Shown here piece by piece: positions 16,919 through 61,608 of a stretch of 64,000 nt of DNA. This DNA is from a virus (lineage: Duplodnaviria; Heunggongvirae; Uroviricota; Caudoviricetes): IMG/VR virus record IMGVR_UViG_3300037743_000091. One strand, given 5' to 3'. The notes beneath the pieces were generated by a model. It saw nothing but the letters and a program-made list of their open reading frames with translations. It was not told the origin of the DNA and did no database searches. The position numbers and the translations under genes are program-made. Numbering within the stretch: position 1 is the stretch's first letter; each line of letters starts with the position of its first letter.

Positions 16919-17081
16919 CCTAAGACCCCTGGCGGGGAGTAGAGCGCGGTTGTGCTGACACTCAACTCCCTTCGGGTAGCTCCTCCCCGTCAGGTCCAGG
17001 ACCAGCGTCTCACCGTGGCAGGTAACCTGGTCCCCGACGCCCGCCGTGTGTTCTTCCATCCGCGCGGCGGGCGTCGTTCTC

Positions 17082-17153
17082 GCTGGTCTGGCTGATCGGT
17101 TAGGTGCTCGCCTGCAAAGCGAGATCAAGCGGGTTCGAGTCCCGCCACCAGTT
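17082..17153 (+). tRNA. tRNA-Cys(GCA), tentative; D-arm atypical
   Basis: T-arm GCGGG-TTCGAGT-CCCGC. Anticodon arm CTCGC-CTGCAAA-GCGAG. Acceptor 6/7 paired. Confidence 0.4.
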
Positions 17154-17154
17154 C

Positions 17155-17226
17155 GGCCCGTTCGTCCAGCGGTCAGGATTCCGGACCTTCACTCCGGCGA
17201 CAGGGGTTCGACTCCCCTACGGGCTA
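17155..17226 (+). tRNA. tRNA-Glu(TTC), with C at position 33
   Basis: Acceptor GGCCCGT/ACGGGCT. D-arm GTCC..GGAT. Anticodon arm CCGGA-CCTTCAC-TCCGG. T-arm AGGGG-TTCGACT-CCCCT. Confidence 0.5.
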
Positions 17227-17227
17227 C

Positions 17228-17299
17228 GCGGTATTGGTCTAGTGGTTAAGGCACCAGGCTTCCACCCTGGAGACCCGGGTTCGATTCCCGGATACCGCT
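17228..17299 (+). tRNA. tRNA-Gly(TCC)
   Basis: Acceptor GCGGTAT/ATACCGC. Anticodon arm CCAGG-CTTCCAC-CCTGG. T-arm CCGGG-TTCGATT-CCCGG. Confidence 0.75.
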
Positions 17300-17300
17300 C

Positions 17301-17373
17301 GTCGCGTTCGTCTAGTTGGCCAGGACGCCGGTCCCTCACTCCGGAAACACGGGTTCGAATCCCGTACGCGGTA
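17301..17373 (+). tRNA. tRNA-like gene with an atypical, apparently 9-nt anticodon loop; identity unresolved
   Basis: Acceptor GTCGCGT/ACGCGGT. D-arm GTCT..AGGA. T-arm ACGGG-TTCGAAT-CCCGT. Anticodon region GCCGG-TCCCTCACT-CCGG. Confidence 0.4.
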
Positions 17374-17383
17374 CTGTCGAGAA

Positions 17384-17704
17384 ATGGCGCAACCTGAAAC
17401 CCTCCTGGTTAACAAGATCCGGGCCGCAGTCAAGAAGAAGTACCCTGACTCCGTCAGCTTCAAGGTTCACGGAGGCCCCTATCAAACTGGGGGAGTTCCT
17501 GACCTCCTGGTCTTCCTCAACGGCAAGGTGGCCGGATTCGAGGTGAAGAAACAGAAGCTTGGGGAGTCGGAGGAACATGCGCGGGAGCGCGCGACCCTTC
17601 GTCAACGCCTCCGGATTGACGCCTTCCGCAAAGCCGGGTGCCGCGCGGAGGTCGTGCTCTCCGTAGGCGAGGTGCTAACCGTCCTCGCGGACCTGGATAC
17701 GTAA
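17384..17704 (+). CDS. VRR-NUC domain nuclease
   Basis: GVPDLLVF ... GFEVK core of the VRR-NUC (PD-(D/E)XK) fold. 106 aa. Confidence 0.7.
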   Translation: MAQPETLLVNKIRAAVKKKYPDSVSFKVHGGPYQTGGVPDLLVFLNGKVAGFEVKKQKLGESEEHARERATLRQRLRIDAFRKAGCRAEVVLSVGEVLTVLADLDT

Positions 17705-49920: not shown

Positions 49921-51192
49921 ATGACTCACAAGCGACCCTCTCTCTCCCCAGAGGATCGACGCCCAGATGGCCCGAGACAGGTGGTCGCCGTGAGTAAGTC
50001 GAGTAACGCGGACCCGAAGGTGTTCGCCTCGCCCCTGAACACTCCGAATGACGTCGTGACGCTCGACGAGCCCACGGACATCCTGTGCAGCTACCACTAC
50101 TTCTCGGACGTGGATATGGCGCAGGTTCACGGTTGGGGGACGCGCATCATCGGGGACTCCGGGGCGTTCTCGGCGGAGACCTCCGGCAAGCCGATCGATC
50201 GTGAAAAGTTTCACGAGTGGGCAGCTAAGTGGGGTGACTCCCTGTGGTGGGTAGCGTCTCTCGACGTGATCGGAGACGCCTCAGCAACTCGCCGGAATTG
50301 GGAAGCTGCCCAAGCAGACGGCCTGAACCTCGTACCGTCGATCCACTACGGCGCGACAGTTAGCGACCTGGATTGGTACGTGGAGCAGGGCGTGGACTTC
50401 CTGGGCCTCGGGGGAATGGTCGCGTACTCCTCGGAGAAGGCGCGCCTGATGCGCTGGCTTATTCCCCTCTTCCGGCACGTTCGTGATCACGCCCCGCACG
50501 TCCGGTTCCATGGCTGGGGGATCAGTCACCCTGAGTTGCTGGACAAGCTGCCCTTCTACTCCACGGACTCCTCCGGGTTCTCCTCTGCATTCAGGTTCGC
50601 TACCTTGCGTCTGTGGGACGTGGACAAGGCACGCTTCTACACGGTGGACCTGGACGGGAAGGAACCGGCGAAGTACGCCCGACTTCTGCGTGAGCACTAC
50701 GGGATTCACTGGAAGAAGATCGCCGTATCTACTCCGGAAGTGCGCCGCGATCTCGGGCGCGTTGCCGTGAAGGCCGTTCAGCATTATGGACGGTGGCTTC
50801 GTTCTCGTCAGCAGGTGACGGCTCCACAGTCGCTCGTGGATCGGCCGGGCGCTCCGCGCCCGGCCGTCGTAATGGCGTTCCCTGGAACTGCGCAGAATCT
50901 AGCTGTGCAGCCTCCCGACGAGGGTCCGTGGCAGGTGAGAAGTGCTATGGGTAGATCTAACTCTCAGGCTGTCCACCCAGAGGGAACGGGTAGTTTGCCA
51001 CGTTCTGGAGAAGATGGGCCCATGCAAGTTGCTGCCGTGGGTCGAGATACCAAGGTCTCTTTTGTGATCGACGGACCCCGAAAAGAAGGCCCTCACGCGG
51101 TAACCGCATTTGGTGTGGGGCAAGATGCAAAGGTGCTCATTCCTCCTCCGGATGAACACTGGCCGAAAACTAACTCAGGAGAAAATCAATGA
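49921..51192 (+). CDS. dpdA: tRNA-guanine-transglycosylase-like DNA 7-deazaguanine transferase (DpdA-like)
   Basis: 423 aa TGT-fold candidate (ILCSYHYF, GDSGAFS, DFLGLGGM). Directly followed by queC/queD/queE/folE. Confidence 0.55.
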   Translation: MTHKRPSLSPEDRRPDGPRQVVAVSKSSNADPKVFASPLNTPNDVVTLDEPTDILCSYHYFSDVDMAQVHGWGTRIIGDSGAFSAETSGKPIDREKFHEWAAKWGDSLWWVASLDVIGDASATRRNWEAAQADGLNLVPSIHYGATVSDLDWYVEQGVDFLGLGGMVAYSSEKARLMRWLIPLFRHVRDHAPHVRFHGWGISHPELLDKLPFYSTDSSGFSSAFRFATLRLWDVDKARFYTVDLDGKEPAKYARLLREHYGIHWKKIAVSTPEVRRDLGRVAVKAVQHYGRWLRSRQQVTAPQSLVDRPGAPRPAVVMAFPGTAQNLAVQPPDEGPWQVRSAMGRSNSQAVHPEGTGSLPRSGEDGPMQVAAVGRDTKVSFVIDGPRKEGPHAVTAFGVGQDAKVLIPPPDEHWPKTNSGENQ

Positions 51193-51878
51193 CCAATCAC
51201 CTCGTTGTTCTGTCCGGCGGAATGGACTCGACCGTTGCTCTCGCTACGGCGTTGCGGGATATGGAATTGGGGGACACCGTTCAGGCGGTTTCCTTCTCGT
51301 ACGGCCAGCGGCACAAGAAGGAATTGGCTGCCGCTCGGGCGGTGGTGGATTACTACACAGGCATTCCGTACCGCGTGATCTCGCTCGACGGGCTCATGTC
51401 CGGATCTGCGCTTCTGTACGAAAGCAACGTTCCGCAGGGGCACTACGCGGAAGAGAACATGAAGGCCACTGTGGTTCAGGGCCGTAACCTCTTGTTCGCC
51501 TCGGCTGCTGTTGCCGCGACCGGCTCTGACGGGGACGCGAAGGTGTGGCTGGGCGTTCACGCAGGTGATCACCCGATCTACCCGGACTGCCGACCGGAGT
51601 TCTGGAACCGTCTCCGGGGGCTGGTGTTCGACGCCTACGGGGTCACCCTGTACACGCCGTTCCTCGGCATTTCCAAGGCTGACGTCGCTAAGCGAGGAGC
51701 CGCGCTGAACGCCCCTCTCGGGCTCACCTGGTCGTGCTACGAGGGTGGCGAGATCCACTGCGGTAAGTGCGGGACGTGCGTCGAGCGCGCCGAGGCGTTC
51801 CACCTCGCCGGAGTTCCTGACCCGACGCCGTACGCGGATGCCGACTTCTGGCGGGAGGCTGTGAAGATCGTTGTCTGA
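51189..51878 (+). CDS. queC: 7-cyano-7-deazaguanine synthase
   Basis: PP-loop VVLSGGMDST. Zn-binding CYEGGEIHCGKCGTC at the C-terminus. ATGA overlap with dpdA-like stop. Confidence 0.85.
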   Translation: MTNHLVVLSGGMDSTVALATALRDMELGDTVQAVSFSYGQRHKKELAAARAVVDYYTGIPYRVISLDGLMSGSALLYESNVPQGHYAEENMKATVVQGRNLLFASAAVAATGSDGDAKVWLGVHAGDHPIYPDCRPEFWNRLRGLVFDAYGVTLYTPFLGISKADVAKRGAALNAPLGLTWSCYEGGEIHCGKCGTCVERAEAFHLAGVPDPTPYADADFWREAVKIVV

Positions 51879-52278
51879 TCCGACGATCGTCATAGGGTGC
51901 GGTGCCGCGAAGCTGGACCACGCGGCACCCGCCCGTGACCTGTACATCGGACAGCAATTCCGTATGGCGCGTCGAGTCGTTGAATATCGAGGATATGACT
52001 GGCTCATTCTGTCTGGGAGACATGGGCTTCTATATCCCGAGGAAATAATTCGCCCTTATGACTACTTCCTGGGTGATTCAGTTCCTCGAAGGAAACTACT
52101 AACGAGGCTACTTACTCTCCAACGGAGTAAATGGCCTAAGGGCCAGATTGAATCCTGGTGTGCTCGCAGGTATACCCAAGCCATGAAAGAAGCCCGAATG
52201 CCCGTGGTGTCTGCGCCCCTTGACGGATTGGGAGTCGGGGAGTGTTACACATGGCTCTACGAAAGGATGTTTGTATGA
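51871..52278 (+). CDS. Hypothetical protein within the queuosine-precursor cluster (TTG start uncertain)
   Basis: 135 aa. N-terminal IVIGCGAAK strand-like segment. Coupled to queD (ATGA). Confidence 0.4.
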   Translation: MSDPTIVIGCGAAKLDHAAPARDLYIGQQFRMARRVVEYRGYDWLILSGRHGLLYPEEIIRPYDYFLGDSVPRRKLLTRLLTLQRSKWPKGQIESWCARRYTQAMKEARMPVVSAPLDGLGVGECYTWLYERMFV

Positions 52279-52730
52279 CGCGCTCAGTCACCGTGAGGCA
52301 CAACTTCGAGACCGGGCATCGCCTCCCTCACCTGGAGGGCAAGTGCCAGTCCCTCCACGGGCATTCGTGGTGGGTAGAGGTCACGGTTCAGGCCCCGGGT
52401 GATCCGGGGATCGTGGTCGAGTTCGGCCCGTTCAAGAAGGCGATCCGCTCGTGGATCGATGACCACCTTGACCACGGGCTCATGCTCGGGCTGAACGATC
52501 CCCTACTTAAGACGCTCGCCGCGCACGGGAAGGTGTTCGCGTTCAGTGAGCATTACGGCGGCTGGCCGACCGTGGAGAACGTCGCCGGACTCCTGGCGGA
52601 GATCTCTCAGGACGCTCTCCGAACGTTCACCCGTGCGCATGATGCGCGTGTGGAGCGCGTGCGGGTGAGTGAGACCTCAGTGAACGCCGCTGAGTGGATC
52701 AACGACGCACCAAAGACGTGGGAGCGCTAA
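52275..52730 (+). CDS. queD: 6-carboxy-5,6,7,8-tetrahydropterin synthase
   Basis: HNFETGHRL ... CQSLHGHSW (Cys-x3-His-Gly-His). Confidence 0.85.
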   Translation: MTRSVTVRHNFETGHRLPHLEGKCQSLHGHSWWVEVTVQAPGDPGIVVEFGPFKKAIRSWIDDHLDHGLMLGLNDPLLKTLAAHGKVFAFSEHYGGWPTVENVAGLLAEISQDALRTFTRAHDARVERVRVSETSVNAAEWINDAPKTWER

Positions 52731-53401
52731 TGCATCTGAATATTTCAGAACATTTCTCCGGAACCATTCAAGGGGAGGGACGCTACGCCGGGCACCTTGC
52801 GTCCTTCCTGCGCGTGGCCGGATGCAACCTGACGTGCTCGTGGTGCGACAGTGCGTACACCTGGGATTGGGGCAAGTACGACCACGCCCAGGAAGTGCGG
52901 CAGATGGAGATCGAGGAGGTCTCCGACGTCGTGCGCCGGATGAAGGGGCGCATTGTCGTTACGGGAGGCGAGCCTCTTCTCCAGTCCGCAGGTCTCGGGT
53001 ACGTACTGAGCCGGTTTGCTGATACGCGTCTGTTCGATCTGGAGACGAACGGAACGCGACCTCTCGGGGCCACGCTGGGAATGTGGGCGTCAATCACGTG
53101 TTCACCGAAGGTCATTCCATCGGCCGATCAGGGAAACCTCGCCCGGCGCATTCACGCGGACATGATCAACTACGCGGACTTCAAGTTCGTGATCCGGGAC
53201 GGTGCCGACCTCGACGCTACGGACGCGTTTATCGAGGAACATGGGATTTCGCCCTCTCGGGTATGGCTCATGCCCGAGGGAACGAACGCTCAGACCATTA
53301 CCGACCGAACTCCGGCCGTGGCGAATGCCGCTGTGGACCGGGGTATGAACTTCTCCTCACGGCTGCACGTGTACGCCTGGGGCGACGAGAGGGGGCACTG
53401 A
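52730..53401 (+). CDS. queE: 7-carboxy-7-deazaguanine synthase (radical SAM)
   Basis: CNLTCSWCDS radical-SAM cysteine triad. TAATG overlap. Confidence 0.85.
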   Translation: MHLNISEHFSGTIQGEGRYAGHLASFLRVAGCNLTCSWCDSAYTWDWGKYDHAQEVRQMEIEEVSDVVRRMKGRIVVTGGEPLLQSAGLGYVLSRFADTRLFDLETNGTRPLGATLGMWASITCSPKVIPSADQGNLARRIHADMINYADFKFVIRDGADLDATDAFIEEHGISPSRVWLMPEGTNAQTITDRTPAVANAAVDRGMNFSSRLHVYAWGDERGH

Positions 53402-58094: not shown

Positions 58095-59060
58095 GTGACC
58101 CTTAAGAATCCCACCCAGGATGAATCCCTCGAAATGATGGACGACATCGAGGAAACCATCATTGGACCGGCAGTAAATCGGGCAGTTCGTACCGTACTGA
58201 CGACGTTGGTTGACTCAGCAATCGCTGCTCTTCGTGCAGCTCCCTCACCGGAGTCAATTGTTGCGGCTGCTGAACCCTGGCCTCTTACTGCTGCCCAAGT
58301 CGCGGGATGGTGGGAAGACGAGGTCTCGATGGAAGTCCGATCCGCCATCGAGGAAGCATGGAGGTCCGCTTACGTCGGGCGGTCCACTGCTCCCCCGTCA
58401 TCGATCGCGCTGGACGCCCTCGTACTGTTCGTCACCCAGGTTATTGATCGTCTGGTACACGGACTTACTCCCCCCCTGCCTGATAACGCGATGGATCTTG
58501 TACGGGTATCGATCGTCTCCGGTACGGCTCTTGGATGGAGTACGAATCAAGTGGCCGAAGACATCGCTGCTCGGTTGGATTGGGATGTCCCAGATCGTTA
58601 CTGGCAACGCCAGCACCAGGAAGCTACTGAGCAACTGGACGCCCTACTGGATACGTACGGTCCCCCGGGAACTCCCGCTCGTGAGGCTGCTCGCACTGGG
58701 GGAGACCCCACCGTGACAGCCTGGCAGAATCAACGCGCGTCAGCACGAATCGAACTGGACCGTACTGAGTCGTTCTGGCGAATGCGTGCGACGCGGATTG
58801 CCCGTACGGAGTCCACCTCCGCGTACAACTCAGGTGCGCTAGCGGCTCTGGCGGACGAGGGGGTAACGAATAAGCGTTGGGTGGCCACCCGGGACTCTCG
58901 CACTCGCCCTACACACATCCGTGCTGACGGGCAGGTGCGTCCCCTGGTCGAGCCCTTCGACGTAGGAGGTCGCTCTCTCCAGATACCCGGCGACCCGTCC
59001 GGACCAGCTAGAGAAATAATCAACTGCCGATGCACAATGATCGCTGACGATGTCGATTGA
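58095..59060 (+). CDS. MuF-like minor capsid/head morphogenesis protein
   Basis: C-terminal VRPLVEPFDVGG ... INCRCTM signature. 321 aa. GTG after GGAG. Confidence 0.75.
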   Translation: MTLKNPTQDESLEMMDDIEETIIGPAVNRAVRTVLTTLVDSAIAALRAAPSPESIVAAAEPWPLTAAQVAGWWEDEVSMEVRSAIEEAWRSAYVGRSTAPPSSIALDALVLFVTQVIDRLVHGLTPPLPDNAMDLVRVSIVSGTALGWSTNQVAEDIAARLDWDVPDRYWQRQHQEATEQLDALLDTYGPPGTPAREAARTGGDPTVTAWQNQRASARIELDRTESFWRMRATRIARTESTSAYNSGALAALADEGVTNKRWVATRDSRTRPTHIRADGQVRPLVEPFDVGGRSLQIPGDPSGPAREIINCRCTMIADDVD

Positions 59061-59173
59061 TGAAGTCGCTGCGATACCCCGTGAAAAACTCAAACACAGC
59101 AACTACACTCAGGTACGCACCGATCACCTCGGGCACCCGGCCCCGCCCCGAGTCACTGCGGGACGGGGCTTTA

Positions 59174-59246
59174 TTCCTCGGTAGCTCAACAGGTAGAGCA
59201 CTGCCCTGTTAAGGCATTGGTTGTAGGTTCGAGTCCTGCTCGGGGA
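59174..59246 (+). tRNA. tRNA-Asn(GTT)
   Basis: Acceptor TCCTCGG/TCGGGGA. D-arm GCTC..GAGC. Anticodon loop CTGTTAA. T-arm GTAGG-TTCGAGT-CCTGC. Confidence 0.75.
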
Positions 59247-59249
59247 GCT

Positions 59250-59336
59250 TGGTAAGGCCAGCCGATGGGCGGCGGCAACTGTCTTGAAAACAGTCTGCGG
59301 GTGATACCGCGTGTGGGTTCGACTCCCACCCTTACC
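59250..59336 (+). tRNA. tRNA-Ser(TGA) with long variable arm
   Basis: Acceptor GGTAAGG/CCTTACC. Anticodon arm ACTGT-CTTGAAA-ACAGT. 19 nt variable arm. T-arm GTGGG-TTCGACT-CCCAC. Confidence 0.7.
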
Positions 59337-59340
59337 GCTC

Positions 59341-59421
59341 TGCTGTTCACGCGACTGGTGTCGCACGCGGACTGTAAATCCGTTGCCCTTGGGCGTGCCA
59401 GGTTCGATCCCTGGGAGCAGC
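59341..59421 (+). tRNA. tRNA-Tyr(GTA) with long variable arm
   Basis: Acceptor GCTGTTC/GAGCAGC. D-arm GCGA..TCGC. Anticodon loop CTGTAAA. T-arm CCAGG-TTCGATC-CCTGG. Confidence 0.7.
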
Positions 59422-59425
59422 ACCG

Positions 59426-59500
59426 AGCACCTATGGGGAAGTCAGGAGTTCCCGTCTCCCTGTCAAGGAGAAGATCGCCGGTTCAAATCCGGTTAGGTGC
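59426..59500 (+). tRNA. tRNA-Asp(GTC)
   Basis: Acceptor GCACCTA/TAGGTGC. Anticodon arm TCTCC-CTGTCAA-GGAGA. T-arm GCCGG-TTCAAAT-CCGGT. Confidence 0.7.
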
Positions 59501-59508
59501 GCTTTTCA

Positions 59509-59580
59509 TTCCGCATTCGTCCAACGGGCAGGACCCCGGATTTTGGTTCCGGAAATCTAGGTTCGAATCCTAGATGCGGA
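59509..59580 (+). tRNA. tRNA-Gln(TTG)
   Basis: Acceptor TCCGCAT/ATGCGGA. D-arm GTCC..GGAC. Anticodon arm CCGGA-TTTTGGT-TCCGG. T-arm CTAGG-TTCGAAT-CCTAG. Confidence 0.75.
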
Positions 59581-59667
59581 ACTGTTATTGCCCATTTCGG
59601 TTACCCTGGCCCTAGTTGTGATACGTGGCTGGCGATCGGGCCGCACGGGACCTCCAAGGAGGAAACC

Positions 59668-61608
59668 GTGACGATCAAGATTCGGAACGTGAAGCAAGCC
59701 GCTGCCCTTGTGGCCAGCGGATCGGATGAATGCCCGCCGTGTGCGCTGGCCGAAGAGTACGACCGGAACGCACTCGTTGCCGCTGGTCTGGCCGACATGG
59801 AGAAGGACGGGCGAACCCTCGCTCAGTGGTCGGGGCCTATCGGATACGAGAACCGCCGTACCGGTGACGGGCGGATGATCGAAGGTGGCGCGCTCGTATG
59901 GGACACTCCGATCCCGCTCATGTGGGCCCCGGAGAACATGGGCGCTCACCAGGGCGCCCAGGTGGTTGGGCGTATTACGGAGATCACCCGGGACGGGGAG
60001 GCCCTGATCGCGAGCGGGGACTTCGACCTCGGTTCCGAGGTAGGGCGTGAGGCATATCGCCACGTGGCCGAGGGGCTGACGCCGGGTGTGTCGATGGACC
60101 TGGACGAAATCTCTTTCGAAATCCGTATCGATGGGGAGCGCTACGACGAAGCGCGTCGCGAGGCCCAAGAGATGGAGGCCGCATGGGAAAACGGCGAGGA
60201 CATGCCGGAACCCCCGGAGCCGGATAGGGATTCAGAGGGTAACGTCGTCGTGCTCAAGATGAGCGTGGACGACGAAATGATGGTTACCACTTCGGCCCGT
60301 ATTCGCGGTGCGACGATGGTTTCTGTTCCGGCATTCCGGGAAGCGCTGATCACGCTGGAGGAAGAGGCGGCCGAAGGGGGAAGCCTTCTTTCTCTGGTCG
60401 CTTCCGTTACCGGAGCGACTGACCTTCCTGTAGCTCCGCGAGAGCACCAGTGGGAGGGGCAGGCCGCGCTGGATCGCGTGTTCGACTTCTACACGGACGA
60501 CGAGGGGAACGTGGATGTTCAGGGCGTCTCTCGTGCGTTCCTGTGGCGGGACAACGATGCGGACTCCACTCTTCGCGGTTCGTACTCCCTCGGATTCGCG
60601 GACATCATCGATGGCGTCCTGCGCATCATTCCGCGCGGGGTTGCGGCGACCGCCGGAGGCCGGGGCGTAGACGCTACCGACATTCCCGAGGACGCCAAGC
60701 GTCGTCTTCGTACACGGGTCTGTGCGCTCTACGATCGAGTTCGTCGGGAGTTCGATACCTGGCCCGCGTGCCCGTTCGATCAGGGCAGCAACGCCGGAGG
60801 TACTACGGCGCTCACTGCTAGCGCTTCGGTGAAGGAACGCGAACTGGCCGCACCCGCTCTCCCGCCGCGTGCCTGGTTCGGCAAGCCGGACCTCCCGGAT
60901 GTGACGCCTCTGACGATCTCGAACACTGGTCGGGTATTCGGACACATTGCCTCGTGGGGTACCTGTCACACGAGCTATCCGGGACGCTGCGTTACGCCTC
61001 CGGAATCGGTCAGCAACTACGCGTACTTCCACACGGGAGCCCTCCTTCTGGAGGACGGGGACGAGATCGCTGTCGGTCACCTGACCGTCGATACCGGTCA
61101 CGCGAATCCGGACATGCGTGCGACTGCCGCATTGGAGCACTACGACAACACGGGAACAACCGTGGCGTACGTGCGTGCCGGGGAGGATGGGTTCGGCATC
61201 TGGGTTTCGGGAACGCTCAACCCGACCGCCACGGAAGAGCAGGTCCGGACGTTGCGAGCTTCGCCGATGTCGGGTGACTGGCGTCGGATCGCGCATAACC
61301 TCGAACTCGTGGGCGTCCTCGGAGTCAACGTCCCCGGATTCCCGATCCCGCGTACACAAGCCGTGGTTGCCTCGGGTGCGATGCAGTCTCTCGTGGCCGC
61401 TGGCATGATCCCGCCGCGCGAGGTGATCCGTCCCGGTCTTCCGGGCGCTCTTTCGATGGACGATCTGCGTTACCTCAAGCACCTGGCGAACGCGGAACGC
61501 GATCGGCAGAAGCGTGAGGCCCCGGCGTCAGAGGACAAGCTGGAGCAGGCCGCCGCGTGGGCGAAGCGGGTCGAGGTACTGGCCTTTGCTAACGCCCTGT
61601 CCAAGTAA
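59668..61608 (+). CDS. Capsid maturation (prohead) protease of the HK97/S78 family fused to a large C-terminal domain
   Basis: GTG after AAGGAGGAAAC. N-terminal block IPLMWAPENMGAHQGAQVVGRI ... GDFDLGSEVGREAYRHVAEGLTPGVSMDL resembles the S78 protease. 646 aa. Position after MuF. Confidence 0.5.
   Translation: MTIKIRNVKQAAALVASGSDECPPCALAEEYDRNALVAAGLADMEKDGRTLAQWSGPIGYENRRTGDGRMIEGGALVWDTPIPLMWAPENMGAHQGAQVVGRITEITRDGEALIASGDFDLGSEVGREAYRHVAEGLTPGVSMDLDEISFEIRIDGERYDEARREAQEMEAAWENGEDMPEPPEPDRDSEGNVVVLKMSVDDEMMVTTSARIRGATMVSVPAFREALITLEEEAAEGGSLLSLVASVTGATDLPVAPREHQWEGQAALDRVFDFYTDDEGNVDVQGVSRAFLWRDNDADSTLRGSYSLGFADIIDGVLRIIPRGVAATAGGRGVDATDIPEDAKRRLRTRVCALYDRVRREFDTWPACPFDQGSNAGGTTALTASASVKERELAAPALPPRAWFGKPDLPDVTPLTISNTGRVFGHIASWGTCHTSYPGRCVTPPESVSNYAYFHTGALLLEDGDEIAVGHLTVDTGHANPDMRATAALEHYDNTGTTVAYVRAGEDGFGIWVSGTLNPTATEEQVRTLRASPMSGDWRRIAHNLELVGVLGVNVPGFPIPRTQAVVASGAMQSLVAAGMIPPREVIRPGLPGALSMDDLRYLKHLANAERDRQKREAPASEDKLEQAAAWAKRVEVLAFANALSK

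Follow-up and report, generated by a model that had tools for sequence, protein, structure and literature searches.

Does a phage transfer RNA (tRNA) gene whose anticodon arm can be read as four base pairs (bp) closing nine unpaired nucleotides (nt) possess an enlarged anticodon loop? The question is raised by a gene at positions 17301-17373 of a 64,000-nt stretch of DNA (hereafter the window, meaning the whole stretch that was analyzed) from a Caudoviricetes virus, IMG/VR record IMGVR_UViG_3300037743_000091. A preliminary description made from the letters of this stretch had proposed an expanded loop, with a frameshift or stop suppressor, a tRNA carrying a processed insert, and a pseudo-tRNA as possible explanations. 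Here, we report that the apparent 9-nt loop is a mismatched last stem pair, that the functional loop is 7 nt with nothing inserted, and that the genuine deviation of this tRNA-Glu(CUC) is a C at position 33 (C33) replacing the near-universal U33. We consider it likely, with good confidence, that the gene encodes a phage elongator tRNA with an anticodon stem of ordinary length that contains a mismatch, and that its C33 is tolerated or possibly favored.

The tRNA gene and its anticodon arm

The gene and the arm in question are:

17301-17373, plus strand: tRNA-Glu(CUC) gene, 73 nt, CCA not encoded; supported by ARAGORN, Rfam RF00005 and the ortholog on contig L450
17328-17344, plus strand: anticodon arm, 17 nt; supported by sequence, Infernal alignment, ortholog and family covariation

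The existence of a tRNA gene here, as first described, is far beyond chance. ARAGORN called tRNA-Glu(CUC) at 17301-17374, and RF00005 scored 17301-17373 at 51.5 bits against a gathering threshold of 29 (E=3.7e-8, with the 64-kilobase (kb) window searched), matching over its full length (model positions 1-71 of 71). The plus strand reads GUCGCGU UC GUCU AGUUGGCCA GGAC G CCGGU CCCUCAC UCCGG AAAC ACGGG UUCGAAU CCCGU ACGCGGU A, and, across the 7/4/5/5-bp stems of the cloverleaf, the sole non-standard pair in the Infernal alignment to RF00005 is 31-39. U8, A14, G18-G19, A21, G53-U54-U55-C56, A58 and C61 are all intact; one of about 12 near-invariant residues deviates, namely U33, which is C at 17334. 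Judged from its sequence, the gene is a member of RF00005 by every criterion except U33.

The isoacceptor identity is equally well marked. An anticodon of the form YUC followed by A37 is present (C34 U35 C36 A37, 17335-17338), the D arm is of the Glu type (U11-A24 and U13·G22 within the D stem GUCU/GGAC), A46 is present without residue 47, the variable loop is 4 nt (AAAC), and G1·U72 stands with A73. U11-A24, U13·G22, A46 and the lack of residue 47 constitute the 'augmented D helix', a set of identity elements for the Escherichia coli glutamyl-tRNA synthetase (GluRS). The Glu-type D-arm and variable-loop columns are conserved in 38-42 of the 43 tRNA-Glu sequences that we aligned. We did not find the E. 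coli identity pairs G1-C72 and U2-A71; the acceptor stem opens instead with two wobble pairs, G1·U72 and U2·G71, both kept in the ortholog. The earlier characterization of the acceptor, D and T arms as canonical was thus nearly right, except for this start of the acceptor stem. Because G1·U72 occurs in 17 of the 43 sequences, cellular ones included, the E. coli rule for 1-72 and 2-71 is not general.

In these respects the gene resembles a bacterial-type elongator tRNA-Glu(CUC) (RF00005, class I), with which it shares a 73-nt cloverleaf, U11-A24, U13·G22, a 4-nt variable loop, a loop of the form C32-N-C34-U35-C36-A37-C38, and G1·U72 with A73 as in many cellular tRNA-Glu. It is 84-85% identical to cellular tRNA-Glu(CUC) from metagenome-assembled genomes and from Corynebacterium. 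Relative to those sequences, the changes in the window tRNA cluster in the anticodon arm (C31U, U33C and G39U), together with C2U in the acceptor, and unlike the window tRNA none of the cellular tRNAs sampled has C33 or an unpaired 31-39.

Positions 17328-17344 read CCGG-U-CCCUCAC-U-CCGG, and the literal description of a 9-nt loop between CCGG strands agrees both with the sequence and with the thermodynamic (energy-only) fold, in which U31 and U39 are unpaired and leave a 4-bp stem. Both tRNA-specific tools, ARAGORN and Infernal with RF00005, set a 7-nt loop of C32 C33 C34 U35 C36 A37 C38. In that layout 17328-17332 pairs with 17340-17344 through four G-C/C-G pairs and U31 (17332)·U39 (17340), the loop CCCUCAC spans 17333-17339 with C33 at 17334, and the anticodon CUC lies at 17335-17337. 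The arm has the canonical length of 17 nt (5+7+5) and aligns without gaps to 42 other tRNA-Glu; its loop departs from the 7-nt Glu consensus CNYUCAC at position 33 only, as does the loop of the neighboring tRNA-Glu(UUC). The thermodynamic z-score of 0.26, a fold no better than that of shuffled sequence, is not informative for this gene given its G+C-rich context. A 4-bp stem with a 9-nt loop can therefore be read from the arm, as the preliminary description held, but no nucleotides are extra, and the surplus bases are the U31/U39 mismatch. A processed insert or intron is likewise excluded, as the gene is 73 nt long and no insertion is left over when it is aligned to the Rfam model or to the 42 homologs.

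The family alignment comprised 43 tRNA-Glu: two from the window, 15 from phages with C33, 12 cellular and 14 from other phages. Across it the canonical cloverleaf is paired in 97.8% of cells, compared with 72% in shuffles, and pairing falls to 31.5-55.6% when partners are slid by 1-3 columns. The pair at 31-39 is C-G in 22 sequences, A-U in 14, G-C in 4 and U-A in 1; the two that are unpaired there are the window CUC tRNA (U·U) and one other (C·A). Since C-G, A-U, G-C and U-A all occur at these positions, 31/39 is a covarying stem pair in the tRNA-Glu family. Together with the L450 ortholog, the 43-sequence family supports the alternative fold with a normal 7-nt loop and refutes the expanded-loop claim.

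Orthologs in sister phages

The gene is the last of a four-tRNA array, Cys(GCA) at 17082, Glu(UUC) at 17155, Gly(UCC) at 17228 and Glu(CUC) at 17301 (17082-17374 overall), with an exact phasing of 73 nt, a single C after each discriminator base and no CCA encoded. Its other members are:

17082-17153, plus strand: tRNA-Cys(GCA), first of the array; normal loop with U33; supported by ARAGORN and RF00005
17155-17226, plus strand: tRNA-Glu(UUC), the paralog; arm CCGGA/CCUUCAC/UCCGG, A31-U39 paired, C33 at 17187
17228-17299, plus strand: tRNA-Gly(UCC), third of the array; normal loop with U33; RF00005 score 68.7 bits

RF00005 scores within the array place tRNA-Glu(CUC) (51.5 bits) above tRNA-Cys (43.2) and below Glu(UUC), with tRNA-Gly(UCC) at 68.7. 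The C33 that had been reported for the neighboring tRNA-Glu is confirmed at 17187; the one in tRNA-Glu(CUC) itself had been overlooked.

Orthologs were found only via an exact-protein look-up of the small open reading frame (ORF) just downstream of the array, and then through homologs of that ORF. The identical protein is present on 7 contigs. L448 and L449, which come from different samples and independent assemblies, both have the four-tRNA array with its U·U allele and differ from the window over 6.3 kb at one position (L448) and at none (L449). Because it was found in these independent assemblies, the U·U allele is not a sequencing error.

A more informative comparison is provided by L450, a 76-kb contig on which a downstream-ORF homolog with 89% identity is preceded by Glu(UUC)-Gly(UCC)-Glu(CUC). 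The Glu(CUC) ortholog, L450:2918-2990, reads GTCGCGTTCGTCTAGTTGGTCAGGACGCCGGACCCTCACTCCGGAAACGCGGGTTCGAGTCCCGTACGCGGTA. Its arm, CCGGA/CCCUCAC/UCCGG, has A31-U39 paired, a 5-bp stem and a 7-nt loop, and it keeps C33. The two Glu(CUC) genes are identical at 69 of 73 positions (94.5%), compared with 77-85% DNA identity for three flanking protein genes, and the four differences are two loop bases, a T-stem A49-U65 pair that becomes G·U, and A31/U31. RF00005 scores the L450 gene at 55.7 bits and the window tRNA at 51.5. The enlarged loop thus appears as a one-substitution mismatch in a single lineage and not as an architecture.

The adjacent isoacceptor has its own history in the same phages:

L450:2774-2844, L451:1866-1937, L455:1866-1937 and L456:5701-5772: tRNA-Glu(UUC) orthologs, with two non-consensus loop alleles

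The loop is CCUUCAC (C33) in the window, L451 and L455, and UUUUCGC (U32, U33, G37) in L450 and L456; the L450 gene also shows two compensatory stem changes, at 28-42 and 29-41. Throughout these orthologs the anticodon is fixed and the acceptor and T arms are nearly unchanged, so variation is focused on loop positions 32, 33 and 37. The sole difference between the L450-form CUC arm and the window UUC arm is position 34, while the window's own CUC arm differs from it at 31 and 34. The CUC and UUC tRNA bodies are 75% identical, with compensatory differences, and the CUC gene was found only in the window lineage and L450. The simplest history, we infer, is that the CUC gene is a paralog carried by the phage, with C33 inherited and the anticodon since changed.

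More distant searches recovered no further copies. A search with the AAA_24 protein of the window returned 66 IMG/VR and 77 JGI/ENA metagenome loci from relatives at no more than 75% identity, none of them with a syntenic Glu tRNA; the syntenic site in these relatives holds Asn-Cys or Cys only. Exact-pattern scans of IMG/VR for the window anticodon arm (a 26-mer and the 17-mer CCGGTCCCTCACTCCGG) gave no match, nor did megablast of the array, or of 25 kb of the window, against INPHARED phages, and distant blastn gave generic tRNA-Glu and tRNA-Gly similarity only (78-83%). At the syntenic site downstream of DUF669, the tRNA content varies among the window, L001-L003, L193-L196 and L450-L456, comprising Asn-Cys, Cys, Cys-Glu-Gly, Glu-Gly-Glu or Cys-Glu-Gly-Glu. 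This pattern indicates a putative hotspot of modular tRNA gain and loss.

Position 33 and the function of the tRNA

Among the nine tRNAs of the window, C33 is found in both Glu isoacceptors only, and it is kept in the orthologs on L450 (CUC) and on L451 and L455 (UUC). We compared cellular and viral sequences using the pattern AGGANNCCGGNCYYTCACNCCGG, in which positions 31, 33, 34 and 39 are free or two-valued. Cellular genomes gave 124 matches among the first 120 loci listed, all with U33 and C31-G39; tRNA-Glu(CUC) therefore differs at position 33 from all 124 sampled cellular tRNA-Glu. All 178 distinct cellular tRNAs called by ARAGORN in the loci of the cellular sample likewise have U33 and a paired 31-39. 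The same pattern matched 49 sequences in IMG/VR, three with C33 (against 0/124 in cells; Fisher p=0.022).

About 20 unrelated phage contigs, most of them large, have C33 in a tRNA-Glu gene. A C33-specific pattern identified seven phage tRNA-Glu among the 120 IMG/VR matches listed (six distinct genes on seven contigs). A stem-independent C33 pattern identified 17 contigs, mostly 100-480 kb, tRNA-rich and ranging from 30 to 63% in G+C, and ARAGORN called a C33 tRNA-Glu in 16 of these 17 loci, with the anticodon UUC in roughly three quarters of cases and CUC in the others. A U33 tRNA-Glu accompanies the C33 gene in several of these phages. Among 231 tRNAs of other isotypes from viral loci picked regardless of position 33, nine (~4%) had C33 and four a mismatch at 31-39. 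Where loci had been selected for carrying a C33 tRNA-Glu, C33 rose to 9-15% of tRNAs and mismatches were also more frequent. These viral samples are small and partly selected by pattern. C33 and loop-closing mismatches are part of the known looseness of phage tRNAs. A literature search for C33 in phage tRNAs found nothing specific. We also observed C33 in Val, Met, Thr, Pro, Leu, His, Arg and Ile tRNAs of tRNA-rich phage contigs from IMG/VR (L090, L132, L146, L148, L159, L165 and L434-L447).

The most likely function of tRNA-Glu(CUC) would be ordinary GAG decoding. We propose that the array is transcribed as one precursor, that host RNase P would cleave every tRNA 5' end, and that host enzymes would trim the 3' ends and add CCA, the last step being proposed because the array encodes no CCA. 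Host GluRS would charge tRNA-Glu(CUC), which would then decode GAG, the most frequent codon of the genome (52.2 per 1000; 838 GAG compared with 371 GAA, counted over 71 ORFs, an approximate set of genes that spans 76% of the window). A lineage-specific A31 to U change would have converted the loop-closing A31-U39 pair, kept in the sister-phage ortholog, into a U·U mismatch, and the four remaining G-C pairs should hold the anticodon stem closed. The tRNA looks like a diverged paralog of the adjacent Glu(UUC), with C33 common to both. C33 would be tolerated, and could be favored by altering a position recognized by host anticodon nucleases.

Precedent for a functional C33 comes from outside phages. 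Eukaryotic cytoplasmic initiator tRNAs carry C33, and engineered U33C variants exist. Because such initiators and variants function on the ribosome, C33 need not inactivate a tRNA, and the likeness extends to this point: a C33 tRNA can work there. The window tRNA differs from both the initiators and the laboratory mutants in being a phage elongator tRNA-Glu without initiator features.

Two readings would deny the gene this ordinary role. In one, the loop would genuinely have nine members and the tRNA would decode four bases at once (+1 frameshift suppression), a stop codon or some other triplet; a U-turn at U31, for example, would leave bases CCC that could read GGG, a common codon in the window. 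The nearest-neighbor fold does give a 9-nt loop, and engineered 8- and 9-membered loops can cause +1 frameshifting. However, the likeness to frameshift suppressors (SufB2, sufD-type 8-nt loops, yeast mitochondrial tRNA-Thr1) is superficial and consists of more than seven unpaired bases enclosed by the stem. Enlarged loops in the literature are due to inserted nucleotides, which give an arm of at least 18 nt, whereas the window arm is 17 nt without an insertion and its mismatch is an A-U pair in the ortholog. That ortholog presents the same loop sequence in a normal 5-bp stem and 7-nt loop, both this loop and its neighbor's fit the Glu consensus at six of seven positions, and the body features (D arm and variable loop) are of the Glu and not the Gly type. 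The anticodon CUC is complementary to no stop codon (UAA, UAG or UGA), and no split or interrupted genes needing suppression were noticed in an ORF survey that was not systematic for them. We judge recoding to be extremely improbable. The specific candidates put forward in the preliminary description were rejected: the frameshift suppressor on the 17-nt arm, the absence of an extra nucleotide and the normal loop of the L450 ortholog, and the stop (nonsense) suppressor on the anticodon CUC.

The other reading, a recently duplicated and decaying paralog (pseudo-tRNA) that no longer aids translation, is unlikely on the sequence evidence, with a small probability that is nonetheless well above that of recoding. 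It would account for the U·U at 31-39, C33 and the two acceptor-end wobble pairs, for a score below those of Glu(UUC) and Gly with only tRNA-Cys lower in the array, for the lack of a CUC gene in the sisters L451, L455 and L456, and for a thermodynamic fold at the shuffled level (z=0.26). A decaying gene is difficult to reconcile with 94.5% identity to the L450 ortholog where flanking genes have diverged to 77-85%, and with differences that, A31U excepted, lie in loops or preserve pairing (A49-U65 to G·U). Nothing is damaged in the D and T arms or at the other invariant residues, the genes of the array still stand exactly 73 nt apart, and the tRNA serves the most used codon.

A further possibility concerns C33 itself and is compatible with an elongator role. 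C33, and perhaps the weakened 31-39 pair too, would be adaptive in that the tRNA resists a host nuclease that cuts or recognizes the tRNA-Glu anticodon loop (for example a PrrC/RloC-like, VapC-like or U-specific HEPN/Cas13-type enzyme), so that the Glu-rich phage proteome would still be translated when host tRNA-Glu is depleted. Its appeal lies in the presence of C33 in both Glu isoacceptors and in no other of the nine window tRNAs, in its retention in the L450 and L451/L455 orthologs, in its recurrence in tRNA-Glu of phages as diverse as 30-63% G+C against 0 of 124 pattern-matched cellular tRNA-Glu, and in loop positions 32, 33 and 37 that alternate among sister phages with anticodon and body constant. 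On the other side, no cognate nuclease is known; the Glu(UUC) tRNAs of L450 and L456 use U33, so that C33 is dispensable; a U33 tRNA-Glu is encoded alongside the C33 one in several phages; C33 is also seen in phage tRNAs for Val, Met, Thr, Pro and other amino acids; and the phage samples involved are small and partly pattern-selected. We regard an adaptive C33 as a tentative and rather doubtful reading, and mere tolerance under relaxed constraint on phage tRNAs receives the remainder.

The adaptive reading does have a published framework. It has been proposed that altered anticodon loops allow phage tRNAs to escape host tRNases (van den Berg et al. 2023, eLife, PMC10264068). In the supplement of that study, two tRNAs of C1 mycobacteriophages, Glu(UUC) and Glu(CUC), are marked as 'mutations', presumably in reference to their loops UUUUCAC and CUCUCAA. 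The window gene resembles the tRNAs of that study in being a phage array tRNA with non-anticodon loop positions off the cellular consensus and a loop that varies between sisters. It differs in that their changes lie at known VapC, PrrC or colicin cleavage sites, for nucleases that are known, whereas the window change is U33C, which PMC10264068 does not mention. The proposal would fit the recurrence of C33, its restriction to phages and the loop-focused variation, and the window tRNA may belong among these altered-loop phage tRNAs and work as they do. The phage context and the evasion of anticodon nucleases, both raised in the preliminary description, were legitimate ideas, and evasion is a possible explanation for C33.

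Several observations weigh against the elongator reading as a whole or against its evasion part. Only one independent CUC ortholog was found, and because the sisters L451, L455 and L456 are without the gene, the CUC tRNA would appear to be dispensable within the clade. Weakening features are combined in a single molecule (G1·U72, U2·G71, U31·U39 and C33), and its score is below those of its neighbors. Across many phage isotypes, a few percent of tRNAs have C33 or a 31-39 mismatch, a distribution that fits relaxed constraint equally well. With regard to evasion, no bacterial nuclease is known to us that attacks tRNA-Glu and for which U33 is a determinant, and a literature search for bacterial tRNA-Glu anticodon nucleases found nothing specific. 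Yeast gamma-toxin, the only tRNA-Glu nuclease that has been studied well, does cleave tRNA-Glu, and a U33C stem-loop is cut normally by it (PMC2275089).

Genome context and significance

The phage origin of the window is confirmed by its gene content and by its relatives, which are IMG/VR viral contigs. Its genes encode PolA, an SNF2 helicase, a primase-helicase, a PD-(D/E)XK nuclease, AAA_24 and DUF669 proteins, an endolysin, the terminase large subunit, a portal protein and a head morphogenesis protein. None of the sequenced phages is closely related to it, and the best PolA matches are from Microbacterium phages (45% identity). Host inference by tRNA similarity gave nothing reliable, as the best cellular matches reach 84-85% and come from unrelated phyla.

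Two features flank the array:

16919-17081, plus strand: conserved structured leader between the DUF669 gene and the array; supported by RNAalifold and BLASTN
17384-17704, plus strand: ORF of 106 amino acids, endonuclease/Holliday-junction-resolvase-like; phrog_93, E=3.5e-14

RNAalifold on five related phages folds the leader into three hairpins with 53 pairs, seven of them with compensatory changes. The last hairpin has a 15-bp G+C-rich stem that ends ~6 nt upstream of tRNA-Cys, and the first is also detectable in the more distant relatives L001, L003 and L193-195. The leader matched no Rfam family and may act in termination, or in the processing or regulation of the array. A sigma-70 promoter scan around the array revealed no promoter-like site, and a terminator scan of the same region gave a single terminator-like candidate, which lies on the minus strand and is no more than chance would yield. 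The downstream ORF starts 10 nt after the last tRNA and is next to the array in all close relatives; it has no Pfam match.

The remaining tRNAs of the window lie in a second array:

59175-59582, plus strand: second tRNA array (Asn, Ser, Tyr, Asp, Gln), five tRNAs called by ARAGORN

Within 58095-61608, this array is flanked by ORFs matching the N-terminal (profile 4-287) and C-terminal (330-781) parts of phrog_859, and it may lie inside, or split, a gene that in other phages is a single head/portal-associated protein. The listed start of the ORF downstream of the array is probably wrong, because it overlaps tRNA-Asp and tRNA-Gln. The class II Ser(UGA) and Tyr(GUA) tRNAs (59250-59422, plus strand), which ARAGORN called, do not appear among the Rfam matches above the gathering threshold. 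Clan competition puts them under tRNA-Sec with 46.7 and 42.1 bits against a threshold of 47, and we rejected a selenocysteine tRNA identity as a reporting artefact of that competition.

A 7-deazaguanine (preQ0) module is located at 49921-53401 on the plus strand:

49921-51192, plus strand: queuine tRNA-ribosyltransferase/DpdA-like protein, PHROG match only
51189-51878, plus strand: QueC
52242-52730, plus strand: QueD/PTPS
52694-53401, plus strand: radical-SAM QueE-like protein

This module suggests that the phage DNA may be modified. The second array holds three of the four queuosine-family tRNAs (Asn, Tyr and Asp).

The tRNA-Glu(CUC) of this phage is itself ordinary, and clearing a false lead (no expanded loop, no recoding, no suppressor) leaves a documented example of a U·U at 31-39 that mimics an enlarged anticodon loop. 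What distinguishes it is C33, unseen in 178 sampled cellular tRNAs and recurrent in phage tRNAs, including the tRNA-Glu of many unrelated large phages. The sister phages form a small clade in which Glu(UUC) has either of two non-consensus loop alleles. Should C33 prove adaptive, it would point to an undescribed host nuclease directed at tRNA-Glu. The broader proposition, which we hold to be somewhat less probable still, is that selection has repeatedly produced U33C in phage tRNA-Glu, and perhaps in phage tRNAs for Val, Met and other amino acids, to counter an uncharacterized bacterial defense nuclease that requires U33 or a U-rich loop in tRNA-Glu. Were it true, the CCUUCAC and UUUUCGC alleles and the loosened 31-39 pair would be the record of an ongoing arms race at the anticodon loop, and position 33 would mark a new class of tRNA-targeting immunity aimed at tRNA-Glu.

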